Positions 1 through 60,488 of a stretch of DNA of 60,488 nucleotides are shown here, piece by piece; position 1 is the first letter of the stretch, and each line of letters opens with the position of its first letter. The position numbers and the translations under genes are program-made. The notes under the pieces were generated by a model, which made no database searches, had not been told where the DNA came from, and saw only the letters and a list, made by a program, of their open reading frames with translations. The DNA comes from a virus (taxonomy: Duplodnaviria > Caudoviricetes), in the IMG/VR virus record IMGVR_UViG_3300045256_000857, positions 1-60,488 of that record, one strand, 5' to 3'.

Positions 1-429
1 TCAGTTGACCTTGGCCGCCCTGTCTCGCCGCGAGCGCGGACGCAAGTAACGACCTTCCACCCAGATGTATTCCAAGGGCTTCCCTCGCGGTTTTTTGTGC
101 GCGGCTTCGCTGATCGGGTACACTGGCACGCGCATAAACTGCACGTTGAATTGCACGTCGGCGCGACGCCCGGCGGCAACGCCCTCGAGCTTCACCGCGA
201 GGTCATGCACCATGCCGGGGGTCGCGTCGGTGCTGACGCGTACCTGGAAGCTGTACTCGTCGCGGATGCCACCGAAGTCTGTGTGTCGTCCGGCGTGGAA
301 GCTCGAGAGTTGCGCGCCGTCCCAGCGTCGCCAGAGCATCGCGGCGTCCGTCAATGCTTCTTCGTCTTCGCGGCGGATGTCTTCGAGGGTCACGGTGTGG
401 AATCGCGCACTGTCAGAATCATAGAGCAT
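1..429 (-). CDS. Hypothetical protein, probably leaderless
   Basis: 142-aa ORF; TATCAT lies 6 nt upstream of the ATG. Confidence 0.6.
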   Translation of the reverse strand: MLYDSDSARFHTVTLEDIRREDEEALTDAAMLWRRWDGAQLSSFHAGRHTDFGGIRDEYSFQVRVSTDATPGMVHDLAVKLEGVAAGRRADVQFNVQFMRVPVYPISEAAHKKPRGKPLEYIWVEGRYLRPRSRRDRAAKVN

Positions 430-464
430 ATTCTGATGATAGCAGAATCGTGTTACAGTGAAAT

Positions 465-492
465 GCCCCTCGAGACCTCCCGCTCGAGGGGC
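465..492. terminator. GC-rich hairpin, probable terminator of the leftward operon
   Basis: GCCCCTCGAG ... CTCGAGGGGC 10-bp inverted repeat in an intergenic gap. Confidence 0.5.
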
Positions 493-519
493 GCTTTGAT
501 GCCGGGAATTCCTGGTGGC

Positions 520-897
520 TTACCACTCCGGGTCGTCGGTCCAATGCGGCAGGGGGCAAGTACGTCCGGTCGCGTTGGGTTCACCATCGCGGGCCTGTGG
601 GCATTGCTCGTGGTTGCAATCGCCATCACGCCCTGCCTTGCAACTGGTCAACGGCTTCTCTTGCGCCTTCAGAGTCTCGAGATAACTCGTGACCTCATCC
701 TCGTGGAACAGCGCACCTTGCAAAGCTGTACCTGGCGTCATCCCGTGATCGCGCTCGAGGCCTTGTGCCCATTCCACCTTGATGAGTTGAATCATCCGCC
801 CGTACCCAATGCCTTTGCATGACCGTACAGCTTGCATGAAATCTCGCTCGGTCACGTTCTGGGCCTCCATGCGCTTTAGTAACTTGTCGAGCTTCAT
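520..897 (-). CDS. Hypothetical phage protein with a Cys-rich C-terminus
   Basis: 125-aa ORF; ATGA overlap with the upstream gene. Confidence 0.7.
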   Translation of the reverse strand: MKLDKLLKRMEAQNVTERDFMQAVRSCKGIGYGRMIQLIKVEWAQGLERDHGMTPGTALQGALFHEDEVTSYLETLKAQEKPLTSCKAGRDGDCNHEQCPQARDGEPNATGRTCPLPHWTDDPEW

Positions 898-1265
898 GAA
901 GTCACCTGCTCTTTTGCTTTTGCCACAAAGCGCCTATAGCTCGTGTCCGAGAGGATGCGATGCACGGCGATCAGCCATGCCTGCTGGCGGTTGACATACC
1001 ACTGATCCAATCCGGCAACGCGGGCTTCAGCGTTGAAGCGTTCGTAGGGGTTAGTCATTGAACGCGCGGCTTCGACGGCTTGGCGGTGTGGTTCAACGGT
1101 TTCCTCGTATTCGCGTCGCGCGGCCTGCTCAACGTTCAAATCGAACTCGAGCATGTGAACCGCGTGCGGACCCGTGTGAATGATGCAATCGCAGTCCTGA
1201 CGCTCGAGCTTCAAGCGTGGAACTGCTGCGCGCAGGGCATCCATTAACCGAGCTTCGTTCACCAC
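894..1265 (-). CDS. Hypothetical phage protein
   Basis: 123-aa ORF coupled to its neighbours; GAGG upstream. Confidence 0.7.
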   Translation of the reverse strand: MVNEARLMDALRAAVPRLKLERQDCDCIIHTGPHAVHMLEFDLNVEQAARREYEETVEPHRQAVEAARSMTNPYERFNAEARVAGLDQWYVNRQQAWLIAVHRILSDTSYRRFVAKAKEQVTS

Positions 1266-1783
1266 GCCACCTCGCCGTCATGGGCGGCGGCGTACTGGTC
1301 TGCGACCTGCACCGCTGCCCAGTCCGGTACGGTCCACAACTTCTGCGCGCCTGGACACTGCACGGGAACCGGCAGGAAGAACACGTCCTCGAGCCGCCAC
1401 GCCCACTGCCCTCGCGCTGCCCACGGGTCAGGATCGCCCCGGAAAAACGACGCGAGGCGCGCGGTCGCAAAGATACCGGGACGACAACTGCTCTCGAGGT
1501 CAGGCTGTCCTCGCTGGTCAAGCCACGCCTGCAACGCGGCACGGTCTGCGGGGCTGGCGGCAAGCCGCCGCTCGTTACAGCCTTTGATGATCCACTCGAG
1601 GTCATCCAAGGCTTCGTCCTCCTCGTAATCCTCGTACTTCGTCACGGGCTTACCGCCGTGCAGGGCGATGGTCTTACCGACCATCTGGCGCGGGGGCGGC
1701 CACGTGCGGTTCTCCACGCGCTTACCGCAAATCCAGATCGCCCACGGCCACGGGTGGCGCAGGGTTAACGCGACCAGGCTCAT
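1259..1783 (-). CDS. ASCH/PUA-like domain protein
   Basis: ALTLRHPWPWAI..GKRVENRTW motif; start re-set to ATG 1783 (ATGA overlap). Confidence 0.8.
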   Translation of the reverse strand: MSLVALTLRHPWPWAIWICGKRVENRTWPPPRQMVGKTIALHGGKPVTKYEDYEEDEALDDLEWIIKGCNERRLAASPADRAALQAWLDQRGQPDLESSCRPGIFATARLASFFRGDPDPWAARGQWAWRLEDVFFLPVPVQCPGAQKLWTVPDWAAVQVADQYAAAHDGEVAW

Positions 1784-2586
1784 CGCGGGAATTCCTGAAT
1801 CTGCAAGCGCCAAGGCCATTCCTCGAGGTCTTCGCCCTTCTTGTGCTTCAGCCCAAGCTCCTGGGCGAGGACCACGCCGGTTTGTTTCATAAACACGGCT
1901 GCGCTCGAGCGCATGGTCACGTCGTTGATGATCTTGTCCGCCCACTCGAGCGCCATAGGACGCGCCCCGTGACCGCTCTCCCCGCCGATGATGAGCCACT
2001 CCACGCCGTTGCGCCAAGGCGCGTGACGCGGATCGTCGGCAGCAAAGTGAGGGATGATGTACGGGGTGACATCCAGCGGGCCGAGCAGTGGCTCGAGGCT
2101 GAGAAAGCGCACTTTCACATCGAACGACAGCAGCACCGGGGCGCGTTGCTCGAGCCACGTTTGATTCTCCGCGCTCGCCCCGAGCCAGACGTTGCCGGGC
2201 AGCGATTCACGCCCGATCTCGAGCAGTCTTGTGCGCACCGCTCCGATGCGCTTGGTCAGCAGCAACCAATCGAGGTTGGGCGTGGCTTCGACCAAGTTCA
2301 TGAAATCCGCGAACACCTGACTTGGAACCTCGAGATCGAACGGGTCGCACATCGAAGGAAAAATCTTGCGGCGCACGCCAGCGGCTCGAGCTTGCTTGTC
2401 CCAGGTGACGGGTTGCCGCCAGTTCGCGGTGACACGCCGAGGCTTCCCCACACCCCAGTTGTCGTGTCCCCAGCGGTGGTTCAAGGTGTCCGCGTAACAG
2501 AATTTGCAGCCGTCGCTGACCTTGGTGCAGCCGATCCACGGCGACCACGTGTGATCGGTCCAGGCGATCCCTGTTTCGATACCCAT
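1780..2586 (-). CDS. Phage Gp37/Gp68 family (DUF5131) radical-SAM-like protein
   Basis: IAWTDHTWSPWIGCTKVSDGCKFCYA, LLTKR, SLEPLLG, GGESG motifs. Confidence 0.9.
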   Translation of the reverse strand: MGIETGIAWTDHTWSPWIGCTKVSDGCKFCYADTLNHRWGHDNWGVGKPRRVTANWRQPVTWDKQARAAGVRRKIFPSMCDPFDLEVPSQVFADFMNLVEATPNLDWLLLTKRIGAVRTRLLEIGRESLPGNVWLGASAENQTWLEQRAPVLLSFDVKVRFLSLEPLLGPLDVTPYIIPHFAADDPRHAPWRNGVEWLIIGGESGHGARPMALEWADKIINDVTMRSSAAVFMKQTGVVLAQELGLKHKKGEDLEEWPWRLQIQEFPR

Positions 2587-2629: not shown

Positions 2630-3154
2630 TTAGTGCATCACCATCAGGTACGGCGGCATGGTGGGCTCGAGGCGCGCACGCTGAGTCACCTCATAGGCTT
2701 TGAGGACAGCCGTGAACGTCTCTGGCGGCAGCTTCCACCAACCCAACGCACCTCGAGCGACGGGCACAGGCTCCAGCAGGCACACCGGCTCCGACAACGC
2801 GATCCCGTAGCGCCCGAAGTACCAAGCACTTTGATCGGCGTGCGAAGCCGGGAGTGGCGCAGGATGCTCGTAGACGCCTTCGACCAGTGACACGCCGACG
2901 ATCAAGCCGGGTCTACTCATCTCGAGTTCTGTCCTCGAGTACCCGAGCCGCATCATGTGGACAGCGCCGTTGTGATCGAAGCTCTTGGCGGTGTGCCAGG
3001 CGATGTAATTCCCGATGAGGTAGTTAGGGCTTGAGCGCCAGTCACGGTTTTCAACCCGTTTAGGAATGCGCGTGCTCGAATCGTCGCGGTTGTCCATCAT
3101 GGCGATGTCCCACGGGCGCGTCAGGCTGAGCGCGCGAAGGGTAGGGGCGCTCAC
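2630..3154 (-). CDS. ASCH/PUA-like domain protein
   Basis: ALSLTRPW..KRVENRDW..GALGWW motifs. Confidence 0.75.
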   Translation of the reverse strand: MSAPTLRALSLTRPWDIAMMDNRDDSSTRIPKRVENRDWRSSPNYLIGNYIAWHTAKSFDHNGAVHMMRLGYSRTELEMSRPGLIVGVSLVEGVYEHPAPLPASHADQSAWYFGRYGIALSEPVCLLEPVPVARGALGWWKLPPETFTAVLKAYEVTQRARLEPTMPPYLMVMH

Positions 3155-5925
3155 GCGCCCTCCTCGTCGTCATCCCAATCCAGCGCATCGTCCGGCGTGC
3201 CTGCTTGTACGGGCTGCTCTGGCTCGAGGTCGGTATCGTTCAGCTCCTCGTCGTCGGCATCATCGTCCGGGCGCTCGAGGTTGCCGTCATCATCGCCTTC
3301 GTCGTCCGGTGCAATGATGTCCTCGAGCCATTGCGGGGGTTGCGTGGCGAGTTCCAGCGCTCGAGCGAGGGCGGTTTGCAACCGCGCAAGGTCAACGCCG
3401 GGTTGGAACACGCGGACGATCTCGTCTTCCGGGTCGGTGTGACTGAACTGTTGCACCCGCTCGAATTGCGGCTCGTCTTTGGTCTCGAGCCAGAGCGTCG
3501 CGCCGTTTTCAACCAAGGTCATGCGCGCTTCTGCGCCCAGAAAGTACGTCCGCGCGGTGAGATCGCCACCCATGAGCGCTTGCTCGAGCCTGAAATCCCG
3601 CACGCGCTCGGTCAGGTTGTGAATCGCACTTTCGAGCTTTACGCCCTTGAGTGCGGCGCACAGTTTCTCGGAAACGATGCAGGACAACCCTGGGTGCTCG
3701 GCGTCCAACGCCCGTTGCAACTCCTCCACGGTGAACAGGGCGACCTTGGGCGCGGCATCCTGCGCCTTCTGGGGCTTCACCGCCACGTAATCGCGGTACA
3801 CCTTGACTTCGAGCGAACCGGGTTTGAAGTGGATGATCGCGCCCTTCGGTAGCGTGTCGTCGTCCTTCGCGGCGCGGTGCGTCAAGCCGTTGATCGCGCG
3901 GTACTCCGGGTAGAAGTAATCCTCCCGCACCACTTCCACCCATTTGAACTCGCCTTTCAGTTGCTCCTCGAGCCGTTCCACGCCCTGCGCTTGCAACTCG
4001 CGCACCTGCTCGGTGTCCAAGAAGTACGAGTTGTCCGGCTCGAACAGGTCTTCGACAATTTCGCCCTTGTACCACTCGAGCGGGAAGACGGCGACGTTGA
4101 CGCGGATGTGCTTGTTGCTCATCTCCGCCCGGATCGTGCCTTCGTGCAGCATGTACGGGCTCTTGGCGGCTTTCTTGATGAACGCCGCCTGACGCTCGAA
4201 GCTCCCGCCGGTGAACGCCTGCGCCGCCGCCAGCGTGATTTTGTCCTCGAGCAGCAGCGCCTTGGCTTCGGGCGCGAGGCGCTGCGCCAAGCCCACGCGC
4301 TGCTTCACCGTCTGCAAGCTCTTGCCGACCTTGAGCGCCAGGCTCTCGAGGTCCGCACCCAGTTGCAGCGCTGCTGCGAACGCCTCGGCCTCTTCCATCG
4401 GGTGCATGTCGCTGCGCTGCACGTTCTCGCTGATCGCCAACTCGAGCAGTTCGCGGTCATCGAGTGCCTGGACGCGCACGGGCATCGGGTAGTCGGAGGT
4501 CACGCGCTCCTGCTGCACGAGCAGCGACACTGCGCGCCAGCGACGCTCACCGGCGGCGATCTCGAATGTGTCGCCGTCCACCGGGCGCGCGACCAGGTTT
4601 TGCAACACGCCCTTCTCGAGGATGCTGGCCGCCAACTCCTCGAGCTTCACCGCATCGAAGCTCTTGCGTGGATTCAGCGGTGAGGGCTTGAGCTTGTAGA
4701 AGGGGATGGTTTGCACCGCACTCGAGGGTTGCGAGGGCTCGGGGCGGGTGTCCGGCTCCTCGATGACGACCGGCGCTGCCAGGTCAAACGTTGGCATGGT
4801 CCCGAGCACCGCTTCCAAGTTCTCAGGCTTGCCAAGGTCGTCGGCGGCTGGCAAAGGTTCGGTTTGAACAAGTTCGCGCCGGGTGATTCCAGGCTCGAGC
4901 GTGTTCCACTCGCCGTCCGTCCAGCGGATGTTCACGGTTTCGTCTGCGTTGATCGCTACCAGTTCCTCAAGCGCTGCCCGCACCGCGCTACGCAGATCGG
5001 GGAACGCCTCCGACGAGACAGCGCCCTTGGAAGGCAACTGATACGAGTAGCCGCCTGCATCCGCGCGAATCCAAGCGGAAGAGTGACTCGAGGTGTTGAA
5101 GAATAATTCGTAGGCGTTGTGACCGCCGCTGTTCGTGACCCTGAACGCCTTGGCGGGTTGAAGCATCCGGCGTTCAGGCAGATGCGGCCCTGCCTTATCC
5201 CCGACCGCTGGCTTGACGACTTCCACCTGGAGTTCAGACGCGATACTGCCGTTCGGCAGTATCGCGTCCTGGGTTTTGTGCAGGACGGTGGTGTTCCCGC
5301 CCCACAACGTCACCTCAACATCCTCGTCGGGTCGCACGATGCCCAGCCCCTCGAGCATGGAGCGCGCAGCGTTGGCGACACTGGCGTGCTTCTGCGCCAT
5401 CTTCTCGCCGTTCGCAGGCACGCAGCGGTACGCACCTCCTACACGGATGATCTTGCCCAGTTCCTCGTCAACGCGCAGCACGTGGTACGTCTCGAGGGCG
5501 CTCTCCGTGATGCGGATGCTAGCGGGCGCGCGGTCCTCCACGAGCTCCCCGCTGTAGCGGTGCACCGCGTTCCCGAGCGTCACGCCTTCGACGGTCATGA
5601 CGCCGGTTTGCGTGGTCCCGGCTTTGTCGGTGAAGGCGACGGTGACGCGCTCGAGCTTCTGGGGCTCGAGCAAGCGCTCTACCGCGTTGCCAACGACGCT
5701 CCACAAGTTCTCGCCTTCGGTTTTGACGCTGTTGAAGACGTGCCGGAAAAGTGGAGCGTTCACGACTTTGGTCAGGTCGGCGATGCTGCCCGCGTACTCG
5801 CCGCGCCAGTGCATGCGGTAGCCGCATCCGTCGCTGTCGCCGGACTGGAACAACTCGAGGTCAGGTTTGACCGCGAAGGGCTCGAGGGTGGCGATGGGGG
5901 CGGACTTACTTGATTTTCTGGGCAT
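3151..5925 (-). CDS. Large ParB/RepB/Spo0J-family fusion protein
   Basis: LKPSPLNPRK..GVLQNLVAR..AGERRWRA..ENVQR ParB core; start re-set to ATG 5925 after GGAGG. Confidence 0.85.
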   Translation of the reverse strand: MPRKSSKSAPIATLEPFAVKPDLELFQSGDSDGCGYRMHWRGEYAGSIADLTKVVNAPLFRHVFNSVKTEGENLWSVVGNAVERLLEPQKLERVTVAFTDKAGTTQTGVMTVEGVTLGNAVHRYSGELVEDRAPASIRITESALETYHVLRVDEELGKIIRVGGAYRCVPANGEKMAQKHASVANAARSMLEGLGIVRPDEDVEVTLWGGNTTVLHKTQDAILPNGSIASELQVEVVKPAVGDKAGPHLPERRMLQPAKAFRVTNSGGHNAYELFFNTSSHSSAWIRADAGGYSYQLPSKGAVSSEAFPDLRSAVRAALEELVAINADETVNIRWTDGEWNTLEPGITRRELVQTEPLPAADDLGKPENLEAVLGTMPTFDLAAPVVIEEPDTRPEPSQPSSAVQTIPFYKLKPSPLNPRKSFDAVKLEELAASILEKGVLQNLVARPVDGDTFEIAAGERRWRAVSLLVQQERVTSDYPMPVRVQALDDRELLELAISENVQRSDMHPMEEAEAFAAALQLGADLESLALKVGKSLQTVKQRVGLAQRLAPEAKALLLEDKITLAAAQAFTGGSFERQAAFIKKAAKSPYMLHEGTIRAEMSNKHIRVNVAVFPLEWYKGEIVEDLFEPDNSYFLDTEQVRELQAQGVERLEEQLKGEFKWVEVVREDYFYPEYRAINGLTHRAAKDDDTLPKGAIIHFKPGSLEVKVYRDYVAVKPQKAQDAAPKVALFTVEELQRALDAEHPGLSCIVSEKLCAALKGVKLESAIHNLTERVRDFRLEQALMGGDLTARTYFLGAEARMTLVENGATLWLETKDEPQFERVQQFSHTDPEDEIVRVFQPGVDLARLQTALARALELATQPPQWLEDIIAPDDEGDDDGNLERPDDDADDEELNDTDLEPEQPVQAGTPDDALDWDDDEEGA

Positions 5926-7160: not shown

Positions 7161-8009
7161 TTACTCCGTCTCGAGCGAGAAAATAGATTCCTGTGCCCGC
7201 AGCAGTTGCTCGAGTTGCTGCGAAGCGCGCAAGTTGACGACCGGACGCGGCTCGGGTTGCGGCGGTGCTGGCGTTGACTCGGTGGCGTCTGGAGCGCCGT
7301 GTGCGAGTGGGTAGAAGGGCGTGTAGTACGTATTCCAGACCTCGAGGCTGAGCGTGTTCCCGCGAATCACTCGCGCGGGGACGCCGTGCAGCGTCAGGTT
7401 GATGAGCGCCATGTCCACGGCCGCCGCGCTGACATCCCACGCCTCGAGCCGAATGCGGGTGCTGTTCAAGCCGCGCTCGTGCATCCACTCCACGAGCGCA
7501 AGCACCAGTTGCCCGGAGCCGCACGCGGGTTCCTGGATCGTCACGGGTTCGGGCTTGTCGAAGATCGTGGCGTCACCACACAACCCGAACGCCATGAGCC
7601 TCGAGATTTCGTAGGGCGTGTGGAACTCGCCGCCCCATTGCTGTCCTTTTTTGCCGAGCCATTCCTGGTGGACGGGTCCGAGCACGTCGCGGTAGGTGTG
7701 CTCGCCCGCTTCGATCATCATTTGCGCCATCGCGTGAGAGAACAGCGTCATGCTCTCCGCGTCCCAGCGCTGGCGCTCCGCCTCGAATTCCGCTTCGCGG
7801 TCGGGCAGACTGGCAATTCGGCTCCAGCCGCGCATGCCGCGCTCCATCGCGTCCAGCGTGACCGCGCGTTGCATGTCGGGTCCGACGATGCAGCACGAGG
7901 ACAGGCGCAGGAAAGCGGGCCAGACCTCGTGAAGGCGATACCCGGTGTTCGCGGAGATCGTCTCGAGGTGCTTGGTGTATTCGAGGCGGAGGGAGCCGAA
8001 GGTGGGCAT
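7161..8009 (-). CDS. N-6 DNA methylase-like protein (SAM-binding part only)
   Basis: GEFHTPYEISRLMA, EPACGSG and GNTL present; no NPPY-type motif seen. Confidence 0.8.
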   Translation of the reverse strand: MPTFGSLRLEYTKHLETISANTGYRLHEVWPAFLRLSSCCIVGPDMQRAVTLDAMERGMRGWSRIASLPDREAEFEAERQRWDAESMTLFSHAMAQMMIEAGEHTYRDVLGPVHQEWLGKKGQQWGGEFHTPYEISRLMAFGLCGDATIFDKPEPVTIQEPACGSGQLVLALVEWMHERGLNSTRIRLEAWDVSAAAVDMALINLTLHGVPARVIRGNTLSLEVWNTYYTPFYPLAHGAPDATESTPAPPQPEPRPVVNLRASQQLEQLLRAQESIFSLETE

Positions 8010-10943: not shown

Positions 10944-11705
10944 TCACAACGCGCGCCTCGAGACGACCTCGACCGCACGACCGACGACGACCGCTTCGTC
11001 CGGCGCGTAGGGTGGATACGCGGTGTTGTCGCTGGTGAGCATCACACCGACCGGATCCGGGTAGAGCCGCACACGCTTCAAGACACTGCCTACCCCGTCC
11101 ACACGCACGACGTAGATGCGGCGGTCGCGCGGCTCGAGGTCGGTGGTGTCTACCAGCACCACGTCGCCGTCGCGGATGTCGTTGGGACTGCCGGTGCTCA
11201 TGCTGTCGCCCATCACGCGCACCGCTTCGATGCCGGGACGCGCGAGGCTGCGCGGGATGCTGACCGCGCCGAAGTCGTGCGATTCAATCGGTAAGCCGTT
11301 CCCGGCGGCGGCGATGTCGCGCACGCGGACCATCACCCAGTCTTCGAGGTTGGTGGTGAACCCGCCGCGCTCGAGCGTTTCGGGCGTCAGTTCCTCGAGC
11401 GGGCGATTGCCTTTGAGGTACGGCACGCCCAGCGCGGCGAGCATCTCCTGCACGCTCCACTTGTAATGGGGTGCGTTGCGCTCGAACCAATCGAGGTTGT
11501 AGTTAGCGATGTTCTCGAAGCCCGCCTCGAGCCGCGACAGGTGCGCTTGGCTGACGTTCATTCGCCGCGCCATCGCGGTCTGCGTGCGCTCCCCGCTCGG
11601 GGTGTCGGGCAAGTTTTCGCGCCGGTCACGCAGCACGTCACCTTGCTTGATCCACGGGCCCGGCTCGCCTTTTCGCACCCGTGTCGTCGCCCCCTCAAGC
11701 GTCAT
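10944..11705 (-). CDS. CI-like repressor (XRE HTH plus S24 peptidase)
   Basis: TQTAMARRMNVSQAHLSRLE HTH; AAG cleavage site, VMGDSM catalytic Ser, LKRV Lys. Confidence 0.92.
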   Translation of the reverse strand: MTLEGATTRVRKGEPGPWIKQGDVLRDRRENLPDTPSGERTQTAMARRMNVSQAHLSRLEAGFENIANYNLDWFERNAPHYKWSVQEMLAALGVPYLKGNRPLEELTPETLERGGFTTNLEDWVMVRVRDIAAAGNGLPIESHDFGAVSIPRSLARPGIEAVRVMGDSMSTGSPNDIRDGDVVLVDTTDLEPRDRRIYVVRVDGVGSVLKRVRLYPDPVGVMLTSDNTAYPPYAPDEAVVVGRAVEVVSRRAL

Positions 11706-39241: not shown

Positions 39242-39255
39242 AGGAGGCGTGACTC

Positions 39256-39717: not shown

Positions 39718-39736
39718 GCCCTAACCCTGGTACGAC

Positions 39737-39766: not shown

Positions 39767-39781
39767 AAAGCGGAGGAACGC

Positions 39782-43400: not shown

Positions 43401-43604
43401 GTGCTGCCCCAAGCGCCCGCGCCGAGCATGACACCCGCACCGCGCACCTCGAGCCCGGTGACGTTCGCCGCCGGAAGCATCGTCATTCAAGTCGCTGCCG
43501 CAGCGCAGCAAAGCCCGCGCGAGGTCGCCGCCGAGGTCGCGGACATCCTCGAGGAACGCCTCGAGTTGACCGCGTTGCGCATGGGCGCGGCGCTGCAAGG
43601 ATAA
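40470..43604 (+). CDS. Tape measure protein
   Basis: FAARTPFE, LGQIKAKGRLQGDELLQL, Ala/Gly-rich, LQIRSPSRVM. Confidence 0.92.
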   Translation: MAFSIEALFFLRDRASGPARGIAAAAQAAGTRLKGAGAQGQAAGTKIGVAAQAAGTKLRGAGGAAQAAGAQISGAAQTAGTKLKGLGAQAQGAADKLEVLKRQALAAGVAADKLNGAYINAGGKLVDASGRFLQVTRQAQGATRAMTGFGGVAARALERARTTAQRFGQDLERIGQISGRVAVALGVLGAATIFTGKSIVDAVGFKEQTLIGFETQLGSSTKALNTYRFALAFAARTPFETPEIISATQRLMAFNFTGRQIPRVLEAAGNAASGLGKGSFGMDRILTTLGQIKAKGRLQGDELLQLSEIGVNARTMLEQAYGVTGKAMDKLISNGAISADTAIGIIVRGMEKKFPKMMDKQSKSIFGLVSTLKSRPFELFQSLDANKELEPFKRVLQNLAAITDFDNNPVGKRIRKRFLSSVGGLFQSVFGRIADFTDPKAMERTVNRAFDTLDRFSAWIAREGPVIVRGVQDFGAGVRDGFAAVKSAYEFVRPFLEGAAGLLQKIIPQGDGGGSSLARLAGQVLALGGALKLLNVVTLGASGSLTRFLLQSVGRVVSVPVRFVGRAAGGLLSRAAQSAVQRSPVLNLGRRAVQGVRGVGRDVLGNMREAGRGAVSFVRERIPVARAAATRGARSLLTRVVSTTKTVGINILTRGVGALRTGVGVVKSVGLAALRAGGQLLLITARAGLGLLRLAAQGLLMGARLAAAWLIGMGPIGWIIGGIALIGAGLVLVYNRVGWFRDGVNAAWSWIKQATSDTAAWIGTAFTNAVNFVGTLPGKIAGFFSGLPDRIAGFLRTLPDKLLGIGQAVLDAVIPKGIRDAIGGAVSWVGDTAKNAANAFNNAVGNGANGAQAAGARLARGAAQGTAGALQIRSPSRVMTGYGVNAGSSFAGGMDRTARSVSRAAQRLARAAAPSVQRRAAPRAAVVPTPLAQRAAQPVNPAPLQAPRLEPRVIAPKPLERVTPRVEVVSPPAPVARVLPQAPAPSMTPAPRTSSPVTFAAGSIVIQVAAAAQQSPREVAAEVADILEERLELTALRMGAALQG

Positions 43605-43606
43605 CC

Positions 43607-44179
43607 ATGCCCAACATCGGACTTCCTCAACGCAACCCCGCCGTGTGGCAGACGCTCGAATTGGACGGCAAACCGTTGCCGGGCGTGATTCAAAAGGCGC
43701 GCATCGGCGGCAACCTCTTGATGCAGCAGGAGCAGATCAGCGGGCAGAACGGCACACTGCTCGCCAACGCACAGTGGAGCGAGGACAGCGCCACGTTCGT
43801 GCTCAAGGTCAGCACCGAAGCCGAGATCAAACGCCTGGGCGAGTTCCGCACCGCGTACAAGAACCGCCCTGGTCAAAACCCGCGCGTGGTCAGCGTGCGT
43901 CACCCGGTGCTGCAACTCTTTGGGGTGTACCAGATGATCGTCAGCGGCATCGAACTCGAGTACGAACCGGAGACGTGGAAGAACATCATCGTCGCCACCA
44001 TCACCCTGACCAACATCACGCCGAAGGTCGAGAAGAAAAAGACCGATGGGACCTCGAGCGCCAAACCTGCGATCAAGCCCGGCGACGCGGCGAGCTTCGA
44101 CGATTACAACGCGTCCTTCGACATCACCGAACCCCCGCCCGCCAAACCCAGCGCCACGCCGCCGCCGGTGAAGCCGTGA
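43607..44179 (+). CDS. Tail/baseplate protein
   Basis: 190 aa directly after the tape measure. Confidence 0.65.
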   Translation: MPNIGLPQRNPAVWQTLELDGKPLPGVIQKARIGGNLLMQQEQISGQNGTLLANAQWSEDSATFVLKVSTEAEIKRLGEFRTAYKNRPGQNPRVVSVRHPVLQLFGVYQMIVSGIELEYEPETWKNIIVATITLTNITPKVEKKKTDGTSSAKPAIKPGDAASFDDYNASFDITEPPPAKPSATPPPVKP

Positions 44180-44847
44180 CGCTCGCGGTCATCAACCGCA
44201 TCCCCGTGGTGCGTTTGAGCGTCGTGCGTCGTCGCAGCGGTCGCGCGTCGGTGCAAGCGACCCTGGGCGTGGGACTCGAGGACGCCGGGTTGAGCCTCGA
44301 GGCTCCGGTCGCGCTGGAGATCGGCGGTGTGACCGCGTTCGAGGGCAGCACGTGGCGCTTAGGGCGCGCGGGCGGGTTAGCGGTGCTCACGGCCCGTGAC
44401 GGCGCGGGACTCGAGGCTGTGCTGCCGCCGAAGTACTACAAGGACACCACGTTCAACCTCGTCGCCACGGACATCCTGCGCGAAGCGGGTGAGCGCGGCG
44501 TGGTCAACCTGCCCGGCGAATTCGCGCGTTACTCGCGCCTCGAAGCTCCCGGCTACCGCGCCTTGCAAGCGCTGTTGTTCGAGCAGATCGGCGCGAATTG
44601 GCGCACGCGCTTGGACGGGTCACTCGTCGTCGGTGCGCACGACCCCGGCGCGGCGAGCCTCGAGTGGGGCGAGGATTTGCTCGGCAGCAACCCGGAGCGC
44701 AACCGCTTCGAGGCACTGATCTCCCCAAGCCTCGAGCCGGGCATGACCCTCACCGTCAACCCCTACGGCGAGGCGCGCACGGGCGTGTTGCAGATGCTCG
44801 AGCACTGCATAGACGGCGCGCGTTCGAGGACGTACCTGTGGCTCTAG
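44176..44847 (+). CDS. Baseplate hub-like protein
   Basis: Position; GTGA overlap. Confidence 0.6.
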   Translation: MTLAVINRIPVVRLSVVRRRSGRASVQATLGVGLEDAGLSLEAPVALEIGGVTAFEGSTWRLGRAGGLAVLTARDGAGLEAVLPPKYYKDTTFNLVATDILREAGERGVVNLPGEFARYSRLEAPGYRALQALLFEQIGANWRTRLDGSLVVGAHDPGAASLEWGEDLLGSNPERNRFEALISPSLEPGMTLTVNPYGEARTGVLQMLEHCIDGARSRTYLWL

Positions 44848-45551
44848 ACCGCTTCTGGGCGGCGATCCAGGACCTCGTGCGCTCGAGCGTGCCGGTCGTG
44901 GATTACTTCGCTGCGTACCCCGCGACGGTGCTGATCTGCCACGGTGACAACACCCTGGACGTGCGCCCGGACAGTCCGCGCCTGGCGGACCTGACCGACG
45001 TACCGCTGCGCGGCTTCGTGCCCGGCGCACTGGTCAAGGTCAAAAAAGGCGCGCGGGTCCTCTTGCACTTTGACGAGGGCGACCGCGCCAAGCCATTCGT
45101 GCGCCCCGACTGGGATGCGGGTGCGCTCGAATACCTGATGATTCCCACGGGTTTGGGACAGCGCTTCATCCTGGACGACGACCGCGACGGTGGGTACGCC
45201 AACCCCATCGTGCGGCTCGAGAACCACATGGGCGAGAAGCTCGAGTTCTTGGCGACGCCGAAGATCGCGCGTTTCCAGGGGCGCGACGGCGAGAAGCTCG
45301 AGATTGACGAGAACGCCAAAACCTTGAAACTCATCGCCGGAACCGAGGTCATCACCTTGGACAAGGTTGCCAAGACCATCACGATCACCAGCCTGCTCGG
45401 GGTGACGATCAACACGACCGCCGGAGACACGACGATCAACGCGAGCGGGCAGGTGCTCCTGGGTGGCGGTGGCGCTCCGGTCGCTCGAGTGGGTGACACG
45501 GTGAGCGGTGGCGTCATCACCAGCGGCTCGAGCAAGGTTCGCGCGGGGTGA
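44838..45551 (+). CDS. Baseplate spike (gpV/gp45-like)
   Basis: OB-like N-terminus; C-terminal VARVGD..ITSGSSKVRAG. Confidence 0.75.
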   Translation: MALDRFWAAIQDLVRSSVPVVDYFAAYPATVLICHGDNTLDVRPDSPRLADLTDVPLRGFVPGALVKVKKGARVLLHFDEGDRAKPFVRPDWDAGALEYLMIPTGLGQRFILDDDRDGGYANPIVRLENHMGEKLEFLATPKIARFQGRDGEKLEIDENAKTLKLIAGTEVITLDKVAKTITITSLLGVTINTTAGDTTINASGQVLLGGGGAPVARVGDTVSGGVITSGSSKVRAG

Positions 45552-45599
45552 CGCGGCGAGACGCACCCGGCACGCTCAGACAGGACGATGGACGGCAGC

Positions 45600-45989
45600 A
45601 TGGCTTCTGTCGTTGACCCGTACACCTGGGCTGACCTGACCGCGCTGCCCGACCTGGACAACCGCGTCGTGCGCGGCCCTCGAGTGCTTTTGGAGGCGCT
45701 CGCGCGGCGGCTTATCACGCCCCGAGGCGGCTTGTGGTACGACGCGAGTTACGGCTTCGACCTGCGCACGTACCTGCACAGCCGCGACCTACCCGCCGTG
45801 CGCTACGCGATTGAAACCGGCGTCGAAGCCCAGGTTCTCCTAGACCCGCGCGTGCTCGAGGCGAACTGCACCGTCGTTCGCCTGGTGCGCGACACGCTGG
45901 AATGCACGCTGACGCTCGAGACGACCATCGGACCGTGGGCAGGCATCGTCAAGGTCAGCGACCTGACCGTGGAGATCCTCGATGGCTAA
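45600..45989 (+). CDS. Baseplate wedge protein (gp25/gpW-like)
   Basis: RRLITPRG..YGFDL..DPRV. Confidence 0.75.
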   Translation: MASVVDPYTWADLTALPDLDNRVVRGPRVLLEALARRLITPRGGLWYDASYGFDLRTYLHSRDLPAVRYAIETGVEAQVLLDPRVLEANCTVVRLVRDTLECTLTLETTIGPWAGIVKVSDLTVEILDG

Positions 45990-47091
45990 CCTCGCCGCGC
46001 TGCTCATTCCCAAAACCGCGACGCAGGTCAAGCAGCGCGTGATTAATGGCATTCAACTCGAGGGCGGGGCGAACGCCGCGGTCAGCGCGATCAACGACTG
46101 GGTGAACGGCGGCGTCGTGGAGACGCTGATTCAAAACGACGCGGACGTGCTCACCGACCTGTACGCGAACGTGCCGGTGATCGCCAGGAGCGGCTTCCTC
46201 GAGACCTCTGAAGGCGAGTGGACGGATGTCAACGCCGAAGACCAGTACCAACTCTCGCGCCTGCCCAGCCTGTTCGCGCGCTACCAACTCACCCTGACCG
46301 CGCAAGCGGGCAGCGGTCCGTACACGATCCAGCCCAATCAACTCTGGGCGACGACCGCCAGCGGCTTGCGGTACAACAACACGAACGGCGGCACGATCCC
46401 CGCAGGCGGGTCGCTGATCCTCACCTTCGTCGCGGAGAACCCCGGCGCGGCGTACAACGTCGCCACGGGACAGATCAACGCCCTGGTCACACCCCTCTCC
46501 GGCGTCACCGTCACGAACACCGGCAGCGCCCTGTTGAGTGCCGGGCGCGACGTGGAAACCGACGACAGCCTGCGCTCGAGATGCCGTCTGCAATGGGCGG
46601 AACTCGGCACGGGCTCGAGCCGCGACGCGTATGAAAGTTGGGCGCGCAAGGGCAGTCAGGCGGTCTCGAGGGTGCTCATCCGCGACCAGCACCCGCGCGG
46701 TCAAGGCACGGTGGACGTGGTGGTCTGGGGCGAGGGCGGCATCGGCACGGCGGACGTGGCAGCGGTCAACTCCTACGTCCAAGCACGCAAGCCGGGCGTG
46801 AGCGACGTGGCGGTCACGGCGGCGGTCGCGCAGACGGTGACGGTCACGGCGACTGTGTATGTGCGCGCTGCGAACCTCGCGGCGGCCCAGGCAGCGGTCG
46901 CCTTGAACTTCGTTGCCTTGGCAAAAAACACGCCCATCGAAGGCACGATTTACACCGACGCGATCAACGCCGCGATTCAAAACGCGCCCGGCGTGCGCAA
47001 CAACGACCTCTCCGCGCCCGCCGCCGATTTCAACCTCAACGCCTCGAGCGCTGCCCAGTACGTCCCTAACCTGACGTGGGTGACGATATGA
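45982..47091 (+). CDS. Baseplate J-like protein
   Basis: AENPGAAYN, GRDVETDDSLRSR, RGQGTVDV. Confidence 0.9.
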   Translation: MANLAALLIPKTATQVKQRVINGIQLEGGANAAVSAINDWVNGGVVETLIQNDADVLTDLYANVPVIARSGFLETSEGEWTDVNAEDQYQLSRLPSLFARYQLTLTAQAGSGPYTIQPNQLWATTASGLRYNNTNGGTIPAGGSLILTFVAENPGAAYNVATGQINALVTPLSGVTVTNTGSALLSAGRDVETDDSLRSRCRLQWAELGTGSSRDAYESWARKGSQAVSRVLIRDQHPRGQGTVDVVVWGEGGIGTADVAAVNSYVQARKPGVSDVAVTAAVAQTVTVTATVYVRAANLAAAQAAVALNFVALAKNTPIEGTIYTDAINAAIQNAPGVRNNDLSAPAADFNLNASSAAQYVPNLTWVTI

Positions 47092-47669
47092 CCCAGCGCA
47101 CCGACTACAAAACCCTGCAAGCCAAGCTCAGCCCGACGTGGCTGCGCAAGCCCGTTGCGCAAGGCTACCTGCGCGGACTTGGACGCAGCAAAGACGAACT
47201 CGTCGCGGAACTCGCGGACGCCGTGCGCATCAAATTCTTGCGCTTCATGGACGATGATGCACTTGCACTCAAAGGCGCGGAACGGTCGCTCGAGCGCTTC
47301 CCCGGCGAGGACACCGAGCGTTACCGCGCCAGGCTCCTGCGCGCGTGGGAGTTCTGGCGGCAGGCGGGCACGACGCTGGGCATTCAAGCCGCGCTGAGCG
47401 CGCTGGGGTACAACAGCGACATTCGCCCCGTGCGCGTGTACGACCCCGCGCGCTGGGCGGAGTTCGACGTGTGGCTCTACCCCGGCTCGAGGACGTACCC
47501 GAACACGCCGGAAGAGGCAGCGCTGATTCGCCGCGTCATCAACAAGTTCAAGACCGCGCACGAGAAGATCGGCAGCATCCGTTACGTCAGCAACACCCTG
47601 ACGTGGAACCCGCCGCTGAACTGGAACCCCGCTGGCGTCACCTGGGGCGACGCGCCGATCACGATTTAG
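47088..47669 (+). CDS. Baseplate wedge/tail protein I-like
   Basis: EDTERYRARL..AGTTLGI..FKTAH. Confidence 0.75.
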   Translation: MTQRTDYKTLQAKLSPTWLRKPVAQGYLRGLGRSKDELVAELADAVRIKFLRFMDDDALALKGAERSLERFPGEDTERYRARLLRAWEFWRQAGTTLGIQAALSALGYNSDIRPVRVYDPARWAEFDVWLYPGSRTYPNTPEEAALIRRVINKFKTAHEKIGSIRYVSNTLTWNPPLNWNPAGVTWGDAPITI

Positions 47670-47681
47670 AGGACACTCACC

Positions 47682-49535
47682 ATGCCCAAGACCCTGACCG
47701 CCGTAGACGCGTTCCTGACCAGCTTGCCGTCGTTCCCGATCAGCGGCAATGCGGAACCGCTGTCCATTGACAACCTCGAGCCGACGTTTCAACGCCTCTT
47801 AAACAACACCTTGCACCTGCACAACCGCACCTCGAGCCTCGAGAGCGGCGTGCGGCGCATCCGCCAGGTCGCGGGCATCGCCAACCTCTCGAGCCTGAGC
47901 ATCGTTGATGGCGAAGAGATCTTCGTCTCGCGCATCGGCATCTACGAGTACGTCGCGGGCAGCAGCACCACGGCGGACGGCTTGTGGATCGTCAACGGTC
48001 CGGGTGGCGTGGGGCGGTACTTCCATGAGTTGGCGGACACCAAGGGCGCGAACAACGGACTGGCAACCCTCACGTCGGCGGGAAGAGTCGCGCAGAACCC
48101 AGTGGATGGCAGCATCGTCACCGCGCACCTTGCTGATGCAAGTGTCACCAGCGCGAAAATTGCGGACGGCGCTGTCGGAAGCCCCAAACTCGCCGCGGGC
48201 TCGGTGATCGCGCATCTTGGATACACTCCTGTAAACCGTATCGGCGACACAATGACAGGCACGTTGTTCGGCACGCAATTCGTCACACGGCTTGGCACGG
48301 GCAATGTGGACGTGGTGCTGCAAACAGCGGGTGGGTCAACACGTTGGGGCATTTACAAGGAAGTAACCGAAGCTGCTGGAGACATCGGAAACGACCTCTG
48401 GGTTAATCGCTACAGCAACACTCAAGTTCTGCTCGGCACACCTGTCAAAATCAGACGTTCCGACGGATTGGTCACGCTCGAGAACGCACTCACTGTAGGG
48501 GGATTGAGCACGTTCAACGGCGGATTCTCGGGTACGTCGGGCATTCTGTCCGGCGCGCTCAACTTGGACAGCGCCCCTGGAGCCATCAAAGTTGCCCTGC
48601 GCACGGCGGCGGGCAACCAACGCTGGGTCATGGCATTGGAAAACTCGGAAGCTGGCGGCAACATCGGAAACGATTGGGCACTGTTACGCTATGACAATAC
48701 GAACGCGTTTTTGTCGCGCCCAATCCGCATTCCCCGCAACACGGGCATCCCTGTCTTCGACGCGGGTTTCTCTTCCCCCGGCGTTCCAACGTTCGACGCT
48801 GGTGGCATTGCCGCACAGTTTCGCGCGTCAGCAGCAAACAACTTCGTCGGGGTCGGCCTTTACGGTGACAACTCGAATTTGACCACGCGTCACGCGTACA
48901 TCGGACAGCCCTCGCCAGGCGTGCGTGACCTCGTGATTCTCAATGACGTGCTAAACGCGAATATCTCGCTAAGCACGACAGGCACAGGCGTTGTGCAGGT
49001 CAATGGAAATACGATTTGGCACGCGGGAAACTTCACGCCTTCAAACTACGCGACCTTGGCGGGCACACCAAACTTCACTGGCACACCGACGATTCAAGGG
49101 CAAACCATCTGGCGCTCTGGTAACTTCGATCCCTCTAGCTACCTGACCACGGCCACAGCGGCGAGCACCTACGTCGCTTTGACCGGCGCGCAAACCGTCG
49201 CTGGCGTGAAAAACTTTTCCTCGATACCTACTATCTCCAGTCAGCCGGTCCCGCGTCGTACTGGCTCCGTATCAACGACGACGAGTGCATTCTCGATCCC
49301 GGCGAACGGTCAAGTCTCAACAACCATTGCACTAGGTGTTTCGGCAGGCACGGGAAGCATGTTGTGCATCAACAGACTGTCAGCCCAGTCATTGAATTCG
49401 GCCGACCAACTCGCTCTAAGAGCATGGGCATGGACTGGTACTGATCTCACTGTGATCGTGTCGAATCTTCGCTCGGTAGCGACTGGAACCGATGTGCAAG
49501 TCACCCTGGAATGCGAAATCCTCAAATACAACTGA
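47682..49535 (+). CDS. Tail fibre protein
   Basis: Follows the baseplate; IVTAHLADASVTSAKIADGAV repeats, IWHAGNF motifs. Confidence 0.82.
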   Translation: MPKTLTAVDAFLTSLPSFPISGNAEPLSIDNLEPTFQRLLNNTLHLHNRTSSLESGVRRIRQVAGIANLSSLSIVDGEEIFVSRIGIYEYVAGSSTTADGLWIVNGPGGVGRYFHELADTKGANNGLATLTSAGRVAQNPVDGSIVTAHLADASVTSAKIADGAVGSPKLAAGSVIAHLGYTPVNRIGDTMTGTLFGTQFVTRLGTGNVDVVLQTAGGSTRWGIYKEVTEAAGDIGNDLWVNRYSNTQVLLGTPVKIRRSDGLVTLENALTVGGLSTFNGGFSGTSGILSGALNLDSAPGAIKVALRTAAGNQRWVMALENSEAGGNIGNDWALLRYDNTNAFLSRPIRIPRNTGIPVFDAGFSSPGVPTFDAGGIAAQFRASAANNFVGVGLYGDNSNLTTRHAYIGQPSPGVRDLVILNDVLNANISLSTTGTGVVQVNGNTIWHAGNFTPSNYATLAGTPNFTGTPTIQGQTIWRSGNFDPSSYLTTATAASTYVALTGAQTVAGVKNFSSIPTISSQPVPRRTGSVSTTTSAFSIPANGQVSTTIALGVSAGTGSMLCINRLSAQSLNSADQLALRAWAWTGTDLTVIVSNLRSVATGTDVQVTLECEILKYN

Positions 49536-49538
49536 GTT

Positions 49539-49997
49539 TCAAGGTTTCACGTCTCGAGGGTTTGGGATACACGGCGCGTCGTACAACAGGGGATTGAACG
49601 ACTCGCCGCAGGCGACTGTGTAGGCTCGAGCAAACGCCTCCGCGAATCCTTCGTGCGGGCTCGAGTAATACTCTCCAAACGCTGCACCCTCATCATGCCA
49701 ACCGTTGTGCGTCCAACCAAGCTCGAGCCGGTCCAGGCAGTGTCCTACTTCGTGCGCCACGATGTGCCCGAAGGCAGGTGTCGGCAAGTAATTGCGATGC
49801 ACATGAACAATGCACTCACCGACCGTTGTCGCAAAGCCGCTCATGTCAGCGGGTCCACCCGTGTACAGCTTGAGCGTGATCGAGTGCCCACGAACCCGTA
49901 ATTGCGACTGCTCTCCGGTCAATCGCACAGACATGAACGCCAGTTGATTGCATGAAGCGAGCACACAAACCAGTAATGCACCAATGATAATTTTCAT
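49539..49997 (-). CDS. Lipoprotein with a zincin HExxH motif (moron)
   Basis: Lipobox LASC; HEVGH ... EGFAE. Confidence 0.7.
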   Translation of the reverse strand: MKIIIGALLVCVLASCNQLAFMSVRLTGEQSQLRVRGHSITLKLYTGGPADMSGFATTVGECIVHVHRNYLPTPAFGHIVAHEVGHCLDRLELGWTHNGWHDEGAAFGEYYSSPHEGFAEAFARAYTVACGESFNPLLYDAPCIPNPRDVKP

Positions 49998-58795: not shown

Positions 58796-58938
58796 TCCTG
58801 CTCTGCTTTCTGCGCCGCCTCTTGGCGCTGGCGGTGCTGTACGCGCGCCCGCAATTCCTCGAGCGTGATCGGGCGCGGCGGTCGAGGGCGGGCGTAAAAC
58901 ACGCGGTCGGCGATGGCGATGCGTTCGCGGGCGGTCAT
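58792..58938 (-). CDS. 48-aa hypothetical protein
   Basis: MTARERIAIADRVFY...; ATGA overlap with the next gene; not in the ORF track. Confidence 0.55.
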   Translation of the reverse strand: MTARERIAIADRVFYARPRPPRPITLEELRARVQHRQRQEAAQKAEQE

Positions 58939-58947
58939 CCTAGTCCC

Positions 58948-59175
58948 CTATTCCCCTAGGATTTTTGTCGAGCGAACGCCGCCCTTGATGCCTTTACCCG
59001 CGCCCCACGGCGCGATGGTCAGAGTGGGCAGGTCGCGGCGTGGCGGTGGAAACCTGACGGTCTCGAGCGGCGTTCCCGCATCTACCCAGATGCCGCGCGC
59101 GGTGTCGTCGCCGGGGGTCACGAAGACCTTGGAGCCGTCTTTGCTCAAGCGTTTGATTGTCGGAATGTCTGACAT
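58948..59175 (-). CDS. First gene of the right-hand early operon
   Basis: 75 aa; AAGGAG Shine-Dalgarno. Confidence 0.65.
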   Translation of the reverse strand: MSDIPTIKRLSKDGSKVFVTPGDDTARGIWVDAGTPLETVRFPPPRRDLPTLTIAPWGAGKGIKGGVRSTKILGE

Positions 59176-59194
59176 AGGTTCTCCTTTGGTTAAA

Positions 59195-59223
59195 AGTATA
59201 TTGGTTTTAGCCTATATAATCAA
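59195..59223 (-). promoter_or_regulatory. Leftward early promoter sharing the operator-like spacer
   Basis: TTGATT-N17-TATACT; spacer contains TATAGGctaaaACCAA. Confidence 0.75.
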
Positions 59224-59255
59224 GCGGTATTCTGACACCCTCGAGAGGACAGCGC

Positions 59256-60488
59256 ATGACGAAACGCAAAAGCGCGAGGACACGCAAGCGGCGCGGCGAC
59301 AACGAGGGCACGCAAGCGTACTGGAACGCGTCCAAAGGCTGCTATCAGATCAATGTCTCGCTCGGACGCGGCGAGGACGGACGGGCGATCCGGCGCAGCA
59401 TCTACGGCGCGACCGAGGAAGAGGTCCAACTCAAACGCAACGAGATGCTCGCCCGGTACGGGCACGGGACGCTTGCCGACCCCGACACCGTGACCCTGGG
59501 CGCGTGGCTGGACCGCTGGCTGGCAATGCAGCGCGCGCACTGGGAACCCACCACCCTGGACAACGCCACGCACGTCCTCAAAACCCTCGGCGCGGGCTTG
59601 CGGAACATGCGCTTGCAGGATGTCAAACGCGCTCACATGCGCGCGCTCGAGCTACGCCTCACCGAAGACGGCTACAGCCTCAGCACGCGCTCCAAGGTCT
59701 TCGGGTACACCCGCGCCGCCCTGAACGAAGCCATCGAGCAGGAATTGATCTACAGCAACCCGACGCAGGGTATTCGCCTGCGCGCCAGTCAAGCCGAAAA
59801 GCAGGCTCGAGCCGATCCGGTGAAAAAAGCGCTGACCGACGAGCAGATGAACACGTTTCTCGAGTACGCTGAAGGCAGCCAGTACTACGCGTTGTTCTAC
59901 ACGATGTTCTCGCTCAGCTTGCGGGTCGGTGAAGCGCTCGGGTTGCGTTGGTCGGACATTGACGCCGCGCGCAAATTCGTCTACCTGCGCCAGCAGGTGC
60001 GCGTGGTGGAAAACCGCCCCCAGGTCGGACCGCTCAAGACCGAGGGCAGCGTCTTTGACATGCCGTGCAGCCAGGACCTGCTGGACGTGCTCGAGGCGCG
60101 ACGGCTCCAGCAAGCCGCGGACCGCGCGAGCGCCAAAGAAGCCTGGACGGACAACGGGCTGGTCTTTACCACCACGCTCGGCACGCTGATTCACCGTAAC
60201 AACGTCAACCGCAGCATCCGGGCGATCATCGCCCTGATAGACGCTGACCTGGCAAAGCTGCCCCAGGCGAACGGCAAGCGCCTGACCTTCAAACAGTTCA
60301 CGAGTCACGCGGCGCGGCACACGGGCATCTCGAGTTGGCGGCGCGACGGGATGTCCCTCGAGCTTGCCCAGACCCTCGCCCGGCACACCGACTCGCGCAC
60401 GACGCTGGGCTACCGCAGCGTGTTCCCCGATGAAATCCGCGAAGCGCTGCCCAGCCTCGAGCGTCGGCGTCGGCGCGCATCGGCGTGA
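59256..60488 (+). CDS. int: Tyrosine integrase
   Basis: LRVGEALGLRW, LKT, HAARH, ARH..TTLGY; N-terminal RRGDNEG arm-binding motif. Confidence 0.95.
   Translation: MTKRKSARTRKRRGDNEGTQAYWNASKGCYQINVSLGRGEDGRAIRRSIYGATEEEVQLKRNEMLARYGHGTLADPDTVTLGAWLDRWLAMQRAHWEPTTLDNATHVLKTLGAGLRNMRLQDVKRAHMRALELRLTEDGYSLSTRSKVFGYTRAALNEAIEQELIYSNPTQGIRLRASQAEKQARADPVKKALTDEQMNTFLEYAEGSQYYALFYTMFSLSLRVGEALGLRWSDIDAARKFVYLRQQVRVVENRPQVGPLKTEGSVFDMPCSQDLLDVLEARRLQQAADRASAKEAWTDNGLVFTTTLGTLIHRNNVNRSIRAIIALIDADLAKLPQANGKRLTFKQFTSHAARHTGISSWRRDGMSLELAQTLARHTDSRTTLGYRSVFPDEIREALPSLERRRRRASA

Follow-up and report, generated by a model that had tools for sequence, protein, structure and literature searches.

The question raised by this locus is why one six-base palindrome, CTCGAG, is written so densely into the DNA of a bacterial virus, and whether the responsible pressure belongs to the virus or to its host. 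The locus is the IMG/VR record IMGVR_UViG_3300045256_000857 (Duplodnaviria; Caudoviricetes), analysed over its whole length of 60,488 nucleotides, hereafter called the window. IMG/VR classes it as a provirus, its completeness is estimated by CheckV at 66%, and the public runs in which its DNA is present bear the label hot springs or microbial mat metagenome. Judged from its genes, the window looks like the intact provirus of a temperate myovirus: the replication, packaging, head and tail modules look complete, and an integrase and a repressor are present. We found that CTCGAG is a true highly iterated palindrome (HIP) at the level of DNA, not a by-product of codon or amino-acid usage. We consider that the word is most likely, with a probability of roughly 0.6, a signature of the host bacterial lineage, shared by the phage lineage at full host-like density.

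CTCGAG occurs 398 times in the 60,488 bases, i.e., once per 152 bp, or 6.58/kb. Dinucleotide-preserving shuffles (n = 100) gave a mean of 27.6 copies (standard deviation 5.9, maximum 44), and none of the 100 reached the observed count. The expectation was 20.6 under an order-0 model and 108 under an order-3 Markov model; the order-4 model, which gives 350, is nearly saturated, the pentamers CTCGA and TCGAG being mostly part of CTCGAG itself. The word is the top hexamer of the window, about twofold ahead, and ranks 2-3 are taken by its own overlapping words. GAGCTC, the reversed word of equal composition, is present in one copy. The over-representation amounts to about 14-19-fold and is seen in all three frames as well as outside genes, so that CTCGAG, like the words of the HIP class, is a short palindrome at more than ten times its expectation across the replicon. 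The first-pass annotation of this DNA had claimed such an over-representation, and the excess proved stronger than it had stated (398 vs 27.6 ± 5.9 in shuffles). Its counts of eight sites in bases 1-1210 (184, 302, 469, 483, 676, 754, 1146 and 1203) and of six in 35850-36200 (35856, 35892, 35928, 35939, 36173 and 36191) were exact, and the similar density that it described across the window was borne out, every full 2-kb bin containing between 5 and 19 sites. The early arm has 7.3/kb, the structural arm 5.9/kb and the lysogeny end 7.2/kb, and the GC content of the window is 62-68% throughout. The field of sites and its landmarks are as follows.

1..60488, no strand: field of 398 CTCGAG sites (counts, shuffles, spacing)
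35856..36196, no strand: example cluster of six CTCGAG sites inside head-tail genes (site count)
48483..49552, no strand: longest CTCGAG-free gap, 1,076 bp between site starts (lower-GC patch at the tail-fibre tip)
30262..31172, no strand: longest stretch without a called gene, 911 nt with nine CTCGAG sites (between head-morphogenesis genes and protease; no Rfam family)

The major head and sheath genes also contain long stretches free of CTCGAG. The patch 48000-50000 has a GC content of 55-59% and spans the tail-fibre tip together with an open reading frame (ORF) of 152 aa on the minus strand that was not among the gene calls (49539-49997, without a Pfam match). This patch looks more recently acquired, yet it too is without the purged palindromes described below.

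The contribution of coding was assessed on 85 genes, which were called by a simple, home-made codon-usage score and cover 93% of the window. These genes hold 369 of the sites, read as CTC GAG in 247 cases, xCT CGA Gxx in 44 and xxC TCG AGx in 78. A synonymous shuffle within genes, with the proteins kept (n = 300), gave 99.4 ± 7.6 sites (maximum 121), distributed over the three frames as 88.9, 1.7 and 8.8; the observed off-frame sites are therefore 26 and 9 times the shuffled means. Permutation of codons within genes gave 36.9 ± 6.5. Outside the gene calls (4,747 nt, 58% GC, part of which may belong to short genes missed by the calls, for example the ORF at 49539-49997), 31 sites were found as compared with 1.5-1.6 expected, and the density there, 6.5/kb, compares with 6.6/kb inside genes. 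In every frame and also between genes, CTCGAG thus exceeds what codon and amino-acid usage would give, as HIP-class words do. A codon-driven word should be accompanied by a similarly common GAGCTC and lose its enrichment in the synonymous shuffle; GAGCTC was found once, and the enrichment did not vanish. These data uphold the first-pass statements that the word occurs in all three frames, CGA codons included (247/44/78), that it also lies between genes (31 sites outside gene calls against about 1.6 expected), and that codon usage alone cannot explain it, the enrichment having outlived an amino-acid-preserving shuffle (369 vs 99.4 ± 7.6).

The effect extends to the proteins. Among dipeptides, Leu-Glu shows the strongest enrichment (306 vs 114 expected, 2.7-fold), Glu-Leu (103) shows no enrichment, and Ser-Ser is the second most enriched (95 vs 52 expected); 247 of 305 Leu-Glu pairs are spelled CTC GAG. 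In tblastn alignments with homologues, Leu encoded by CTCGAG was matched by Leu in 76 of 994 cells (7.6%), as compared with 2812 of 6964 (40.4%) for other Leu, a comparison that rests mostly on the terminase (163 rows, with 1-3 rows for each of 11 other proteins) and on about a dozen independent sites. A homologue has Leu-Glu in just 16 of the 994 aligned cells at CTCGAG sites. These results show that the pressure for CTCGAG overrides synonymous codon choice and places Leu-Glu where homologues differ. The gene that contributes most to this comparison is the following.

25514..27109, plus strand: large terminase (used to find relatives; CTCGAG-encoded Leu at non-conserved positions)

The word is exactly six bases long. 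Its flanks favour G before and C after, and 118 of the 398 sites are palindromic at ±1, as compared with about 33% expected from the flank composition by hand calculation; there is no palindromic extension. The 620 TCGA cores of the window comprise 398 in CTCGAG, none in GTCGAC or ATCGAT and one in TTCGAA. Among the nine pairs of one-off words, only two, both C-to-T products, are clearly above dinucleotide expectation, namely TTCGAG/CTCGAA (74 vs 42 expected, 1.76x) and CTTGAG/CTCAAG (43 vs 27, 1.6x). CCCGAG/CTCGGG is near expectation (64 vs 56), and the six transversion pairs stand at 0.44-0.93 of it. A Vsr-like repair signature was sought among the one-off words of the window and none was seen; the pattern looks like the decay of sites by ordinary C-to-T transitions, not like Vsr-type rescue.

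The sites are also more evenly spaced than chance placement gives. The coefficient of variation of the gaps is 0.837, as compared with 0.994 ± 0.05 for random placement, and none of 2000 placements was as low; gaps below 30 bp number 33 instead of 69 ± 7, and the Fano factor is 0.67-0.82. The spacing is therefore non-random and quasi-regular, as in the HIP class, with respect to a null of random placement without coding constraints.

Most other six-base palindromes are nearly absent from the window. For the 34 palindromes with a dinucleotide expectation of at least 10 per strand, the median ratio of observed to expected copies is 0.12, as compared with 0.94 for 2192 non-palindromes, and the ratio is below 0.1 for 14 of the 34 palindromes vs 12 of the 2192 non-palindromes. 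The first-pass remark that phages avoid 6-bp palindromes is thus true of this one. Eleven palindromes (GGCGCC, GCCGGC, TCGCGA, CGATCG, GACGTC, GTCGAC, CTGCAG, CAGCTG, TCCGGA, ACCGGT and GGTACC) have no copy at all against expectations of 16-64, GGCGCC and GCCGGC being expected 64 times each. All four GGYRCC words are absent, and GGCC stands at 0.16 of expectation. The GC-rich 6-bp palindromes that are not purged are CTCGAG, GCGCGC, CGCGCG, AGCGCT and ACGCGT. Twelve purged words together occur once in the window (0.017/kb), as compared with a median of 9.9/kb and a minimum of 1.49/kb in 247 other GC-rich loci. Avoidance of restriction sites, known from phage and bacterial genomes, would explain missing palindromes; the other palindromes here fit it, whereas CTCGAG runs in the opposite direction, about 14-fold up. 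The near-total purge suggests strong restriction pressure on the element, with CTCGAG as the exception, and since it escapes the purge, CTCGAG is by implication a site left uncut by the host. As a separate observation, an 82-bp island of otherwise purged words (5479-5560) lies inside the 924-aa ParB-domain gene listed below, and contains the sole GAGCTC (5542), the sole GCTAGC (5518), one of the three GTGCAC (5560) and a CACGTG (5479).

A known word of comparable behaviour is HIP1 (GCGATCGC) of cyanobacteria. In the HIP1 literature, it is described as a palindrome hyper-abundant in and between genes (Elhai 2015, PMC4390886), with a density of 300-2,700 per Mb (PMC4390886, Table 2), as quasi-periodic (PMC13756078), as tied to solitary methyltransferases and uncertain in function (PMC4390886; Xu et al. 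2018, PMC5861425), and as an aid to natural transformation in a methylation-dependent manner (bioRxiv 10.1101/2024.09.10.611283). The first-pass comparison with HIP1 stands in that CTCGAG behaves as a HIP1-type iterated palindrome for which codon usage is insufficient. Both are short palindromes, tens-fold over-represented in coding and non-coding DNA beyond codon usage, and one-off variants are common in both; HIP1 is quasi-periodic and CTCGAG under-dispersed. Unlike HIP1, CTCGAG is 6 bp without palindromic extension, reaches about 6,600 per Mb and sits on a provirus from a non-cyanobacterial setting. HIP1 proper is not found in the window, as CGATCG has no copy there. An alternate HIP, GGGATCCC, is reported for the hot-spring Synechococcus OS-A and OS-B' in the same source (PMC4390886). 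The likeness is that a lineage-specific palindrome replaces the common one, again in hot-spring mats; unlike that word, GGATCC has only 5 copies here.

HIP1 was also counted in cyanophage genomes. Planktothrix phage PaV-LD (NC_016564) carries 46 copies of GCGATCGC in 95.3 kb, and the reversed control word is absent from it. HIP1 has no copy in Anabaena phage A-4L or Phormidium phage Pf-WMP3 and one in the 162 kb of Microcystis phage Ma-LMM01. PaV-LD resembles the present case as a phage with the iterated palindrome of its host group at host-like density, although its word is about 14-fold sparser than CTCGAG here. It is a precedent, in these data, for a phage sharing the word of its host group, and not the rule. 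A literature search returned no paper noting HIP1 in PaV-LD or HIP1 in phages, and, with supplementary files outside its scope, no report of CTCGAG hyper-abundance. A term search found no mention of phages in PMC4390886 or PMC5861425, and none of CTCGAG in PMC4390886. Within the literature searched, the iterated palindrome is thus a known kind of word, and the word CTCGAG, its density, its location in a virus and its pairing with a palindrome purge are new.

Two other classes of dense short words offer a comparison. The DNA uptake sequences of Neisseria and Haemophilus are non-palindromic, 9-12 nt long and present at about 1 per kb; these sequences and Dam GATC, used by MutH, are short words of high and fairly even density with a function in DNA metabolism, and they occur on resident mobile DNA too. 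CTCGAG resembles both in being a short word kept dense and even, and differs from uptake sequences in palindromy, length and density: a 6-bp palindrome without extension is not the asymmetric 9-12-mer at about 1/kb with a cognate uptake receptor that defines them. GATC and mismatch repair are discussed in the context of HIP1 in PMC4390886.

We then compared the window with its relatives. The nearest terminase relatives, from one genome per GTDB species and from IMG/VR, share at most 45% identity. Across 80 genome loci with relatives of the large terminase (TerL; 31-45% identity, best segment), the maximum density was 1.64 CTCGAG/kb, as compared with 6.58/kb here, so that the word did not come down from any phage ancestor found. 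Scans of IMG/VR and of metagenome contigs with triple-site patterns gave at least 120 matches each, and among the matches listed many are CTCGAG-rich, but most are GC-rich DNA with frequent GAGCTC and other palindromes; those with many GAGCTC were read as codon-driven or unrelated. A loose companion filter (at least 2 CTCGAG/kb and at most 1.5 purged words/kb) was passed by only one of 401 loci, L310, a 2.4-kb contig of 46% GC with 1.27 purged words/kb vs 0.017 in the window. One IMG/VR locus (L266/G006; 110,308 bp, direct terminal repeats) has 318 CTCGAG and no GAGCTC; it opens with a CTCGAG run at 15-bp spacing, and its other palindromes are not purged. Many 25-nt joints at public contigs, with sides of only 21-22 letters, were taken as noise. 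As a taxonomic clue, comparison of the integrase with plasmids (at most 27% identity) was uninformative.

Other phyla were scanned blind with a loose or a strict pattern, of which the window itself has the loose form eight times and the strict form once in 60.5 kb. In 401 sampled genomes of each phylum, the maximum per genome was 22 for the phylum of an Anaerolinea locus (loose pattern), 2 for that of a Capsulimonas locus (strict) and 5 for that of a Terriglobia locus (strict), all below carrier level; 20 sampled genomes of a fourth phylum gave 0 with the loose pattern. The negative count of one phylum scan includes the unpublished genomes G202, G301, G174 and G256. The first 20 kb of a Deinococcus radiodurans plasmid record contain one CTCGAG.

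The window encodes the following DNA-modification and ParB-domain genes of its own.

7161..8009, minus strand: 282-aa protein with an N6-adenine DNA methyltransferase core (Pfam N6_Mtase 4.2e-10; PDB 7vru_A 1.4e-5; phrog_5696)
3151..5925, minus strand: 924-aa protein with central ParB_N and HTH_ParB, sharing a minus-strand gene run with the methyltransferase
20124-20540, plus strand: QueD/PTPS, preQ0-pathway gene
20613-21305, plus strand: radical-SAM QueE-like protein, preQ0-pathway gene
21295-21873, plus strand: GTP cyclohydrolase I FolE, preQ0-pathway gene
21815..22705, plus strand: DpdA-like DNA transglycosylase, a queuine tRNA-ribosyltransferase PHROG (phrog_887 9.3e-27; no Pfam or NCBIfam match)
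22669..23502, plus strand: ParB_N protein directly 3' of the DpdA-like gene, read as a DpdB-like partner

The protein at 7161..8009 was the sole methyltransferase-like match among 56 proteins scanned (of the 85 calls and one further ORF); its NCBIfam matches are weak, and the similarity is confined to the catalytic core. A six-frame search of the window found no C5 methylase. The 7-deazaguanine region (18145-23502) combines a DpdA-type transglycosylase with preQ0 synthesis genes, the composition of a Dpd-type modification system; the module consists of DpdA-like and DpdB-like proteins with FolE, QueD and a QueE-like protein. QueC was not recognised among the proteins scanned, and a 480-aa protein within the region (18145-19587) had no match in Pfam, NCBIfam or PHROGs. 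According to PMC10164549, DpdA of the bacterial Dpd system is partnered by a ParB-fold ATPase, DpdB, and the simplest reading of the ParB_N protein at 22669-23502, by analogy, would be a DpdB-type partner. The only DpdA site characterised in that source is CAGCTG, with the partial motif CxGCxG; CAGCTG is unlike CTCGAG and has no copy in the window. The first-pass annotation had proposed that CTCGAG might be linked to the deazaguanine system or to ParB proteins, and we found no evidence for this, the ParB_N gene reading more simply as DpdB-type.

One possible explanation for the abundance of CTCGAG is an artefact of codon usage, codon pairs or amino-acid composition in a GC-rich genome favouring CTC and GAG. 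It draws some appeal from the 247 of 369 genic sites that are CTC-GAG, CTC and GAG being the commonest Leu and Glu codons, and from several IMG/VR contigs among the matches listed that have 3-6 CTCGAG/kb and are also GAGCTC-rich, as codon usage gives. We give it practically no credence, because shuffles yield 99 and 37 sites where 369 are observed, off-frame sites are in 26- and 9-fold excess, 31 sites lie outside genes, GAGCTC has a single copy and Glu-Leu is unenriched. A neutral bias of mutation or repair is a more serious rival, though still an unlikely one: a cytosine methyltransferase with Vsr-like repair, or biased gene conversion, would generate CTCGAG without any function, and this would account alike for every frame, non-coding DNA and a resident provirus. 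Repair-linked origins have been discussed for HIP1 in PMC4390886. However, the deamination products are not depleted but are the sole neighbours above expectation (1.76x and 1.6x), the density outside genes (6.5/kb) does not exceed that inside (6.6/kb) despite weaker constraint, and the spacing is under-dispersed; no C5 methylase was found in the window, although one might be encoded by the host. Even spacing, together with a density that is the same in coding and non-coding DNA, does not fit simple mutation bias and argues for selection, or conversion with interference, for about one site per 150 bp. It is less probable again, in our judgement, that the phage selects the word by itself and independently of its host, for example for its N6-adenine methyltransferase, its ParB-fusion protein or DpdA/DpdB. 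The phage does encode the N6_Mtase-core protein, two ParB_N proteins and the DpdA-like gene with preQ0 genes, its nearest relatives are without CTCGAG and no contig of the same fingerprint was seen among the 401 loci; yet nothing ties those genes to CTCGAG, the methyltransferase match covers the catalytic core only, the characterised DpdA site CAGCTG (PMC10164549) does not fit, and a binding or packaging signal needs no 398 evenly spread copies that change amino acids.

We prefer the hypothesis that CTCGAG is a signature of the host lineage, to which the absence of the word from the nearest phage relatives lends indirect support. Since the provirus looks intact and its genes undecayed, the approximately 370 excess sites did not arise by drift after integration, and the word must have been maintained in an active phage lineage. 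In PMC3025956, scarcity of HIP1 is used as a mark of recently acquired genes; if this logic is applied to CTCGAG, the provirus would be an old co-traveller of its host lineage. The pressure would belong to that lineage and act on every replicon in the cell, the phage included during its life there, either as selection or as a conversion process with interference that sets a site at intervals of about 150 bp. If HIP1 and its orphan methyltransferases are taken as a model, CTCGAG would probably be methylated and serve the cell in repair, recombination or DNA uptake, and would remain uncut in that host. Several observations weigh against the host-lineage hypothesis. Three of the four cyanophages counted have HIP1 0 or 1 times, so that sharing the word of the host is not the rule. 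The public contig holding the provirus ends 157 nt past the window, and a search of metagenome contigs with the exact 60 bases at the window's right end found no match. No companion with the fingerprint of the window was found among the 401 loci, which include the pattern-scan matches listed. The phage encodes a predicted adenine methyltransferase and DNA-modification genes of its own, which leave room for a phage-autonomous cause, and the spacing null, being random placement, ignores coding constraints.

More speculatively, and in our view rather doubtfully, every replicon in the host may depend on CTCGAG as a cis-acting mark, such as a methylated 'self' signal or a repair or recombination handle about every 150 bp, which the phage would have evolved to mimic in full. 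The phage would have stripped the palindromes cut by restriction and written the permitted CTCGAG into its genes at a cost in amino acids, and it may bring its own adenine methyltransferase to mark CTCGAG on infection. If this is true, how densely a phage carries such a palindrome would help to determine which hosts it can infect, and phages could serve as natural probes of palindrome function. The function of iterated palindromes such as HIP1 has been open for about thirty years, and a virus with the word at full density narrows the options: the force would act on any replicon living in the cell and would not be specific to the chromosome, it would be strong enough to override protein sequence, and CTCGAG must be safe from restriction in the host. 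Should the host prove to be without CTCGAG, the word would be an iterated palindrome made by a phage, which would be stranger still.

Further genes of the provirus are listed here.

1780..2586, minus strand: DUF5131 protein (6.3e-58), a member of the gene run that includes the 924-aa ParB-domain protein and the methyltransferase
10944..11705, minus strand: LexA/CI-type repressor (HTH and Peptidase_S24)
27111..49535, plus strand: structural module comprising portal, head morphogenesis, protease, major head protein, sheath, tape measure, baseplate J and tail fibre
59256..60488, plus strand: tyrosine integrase at the right edge of the record (phrog_1 3.7e-54)

No tRNA genes or Rfam families were found in the window. 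Other early genes encode a replication initiator-like protein, a DnaC-like ATPase and a UvrD-like helicase, and a weak M15-peptidase match was also seen among the structural and lysogeny genes. A small protein with HNH_3 and AP2 domains, a combination typical of homing endonucleases, is encoded close to the lysogeny genes (57286-57792, minus strand).

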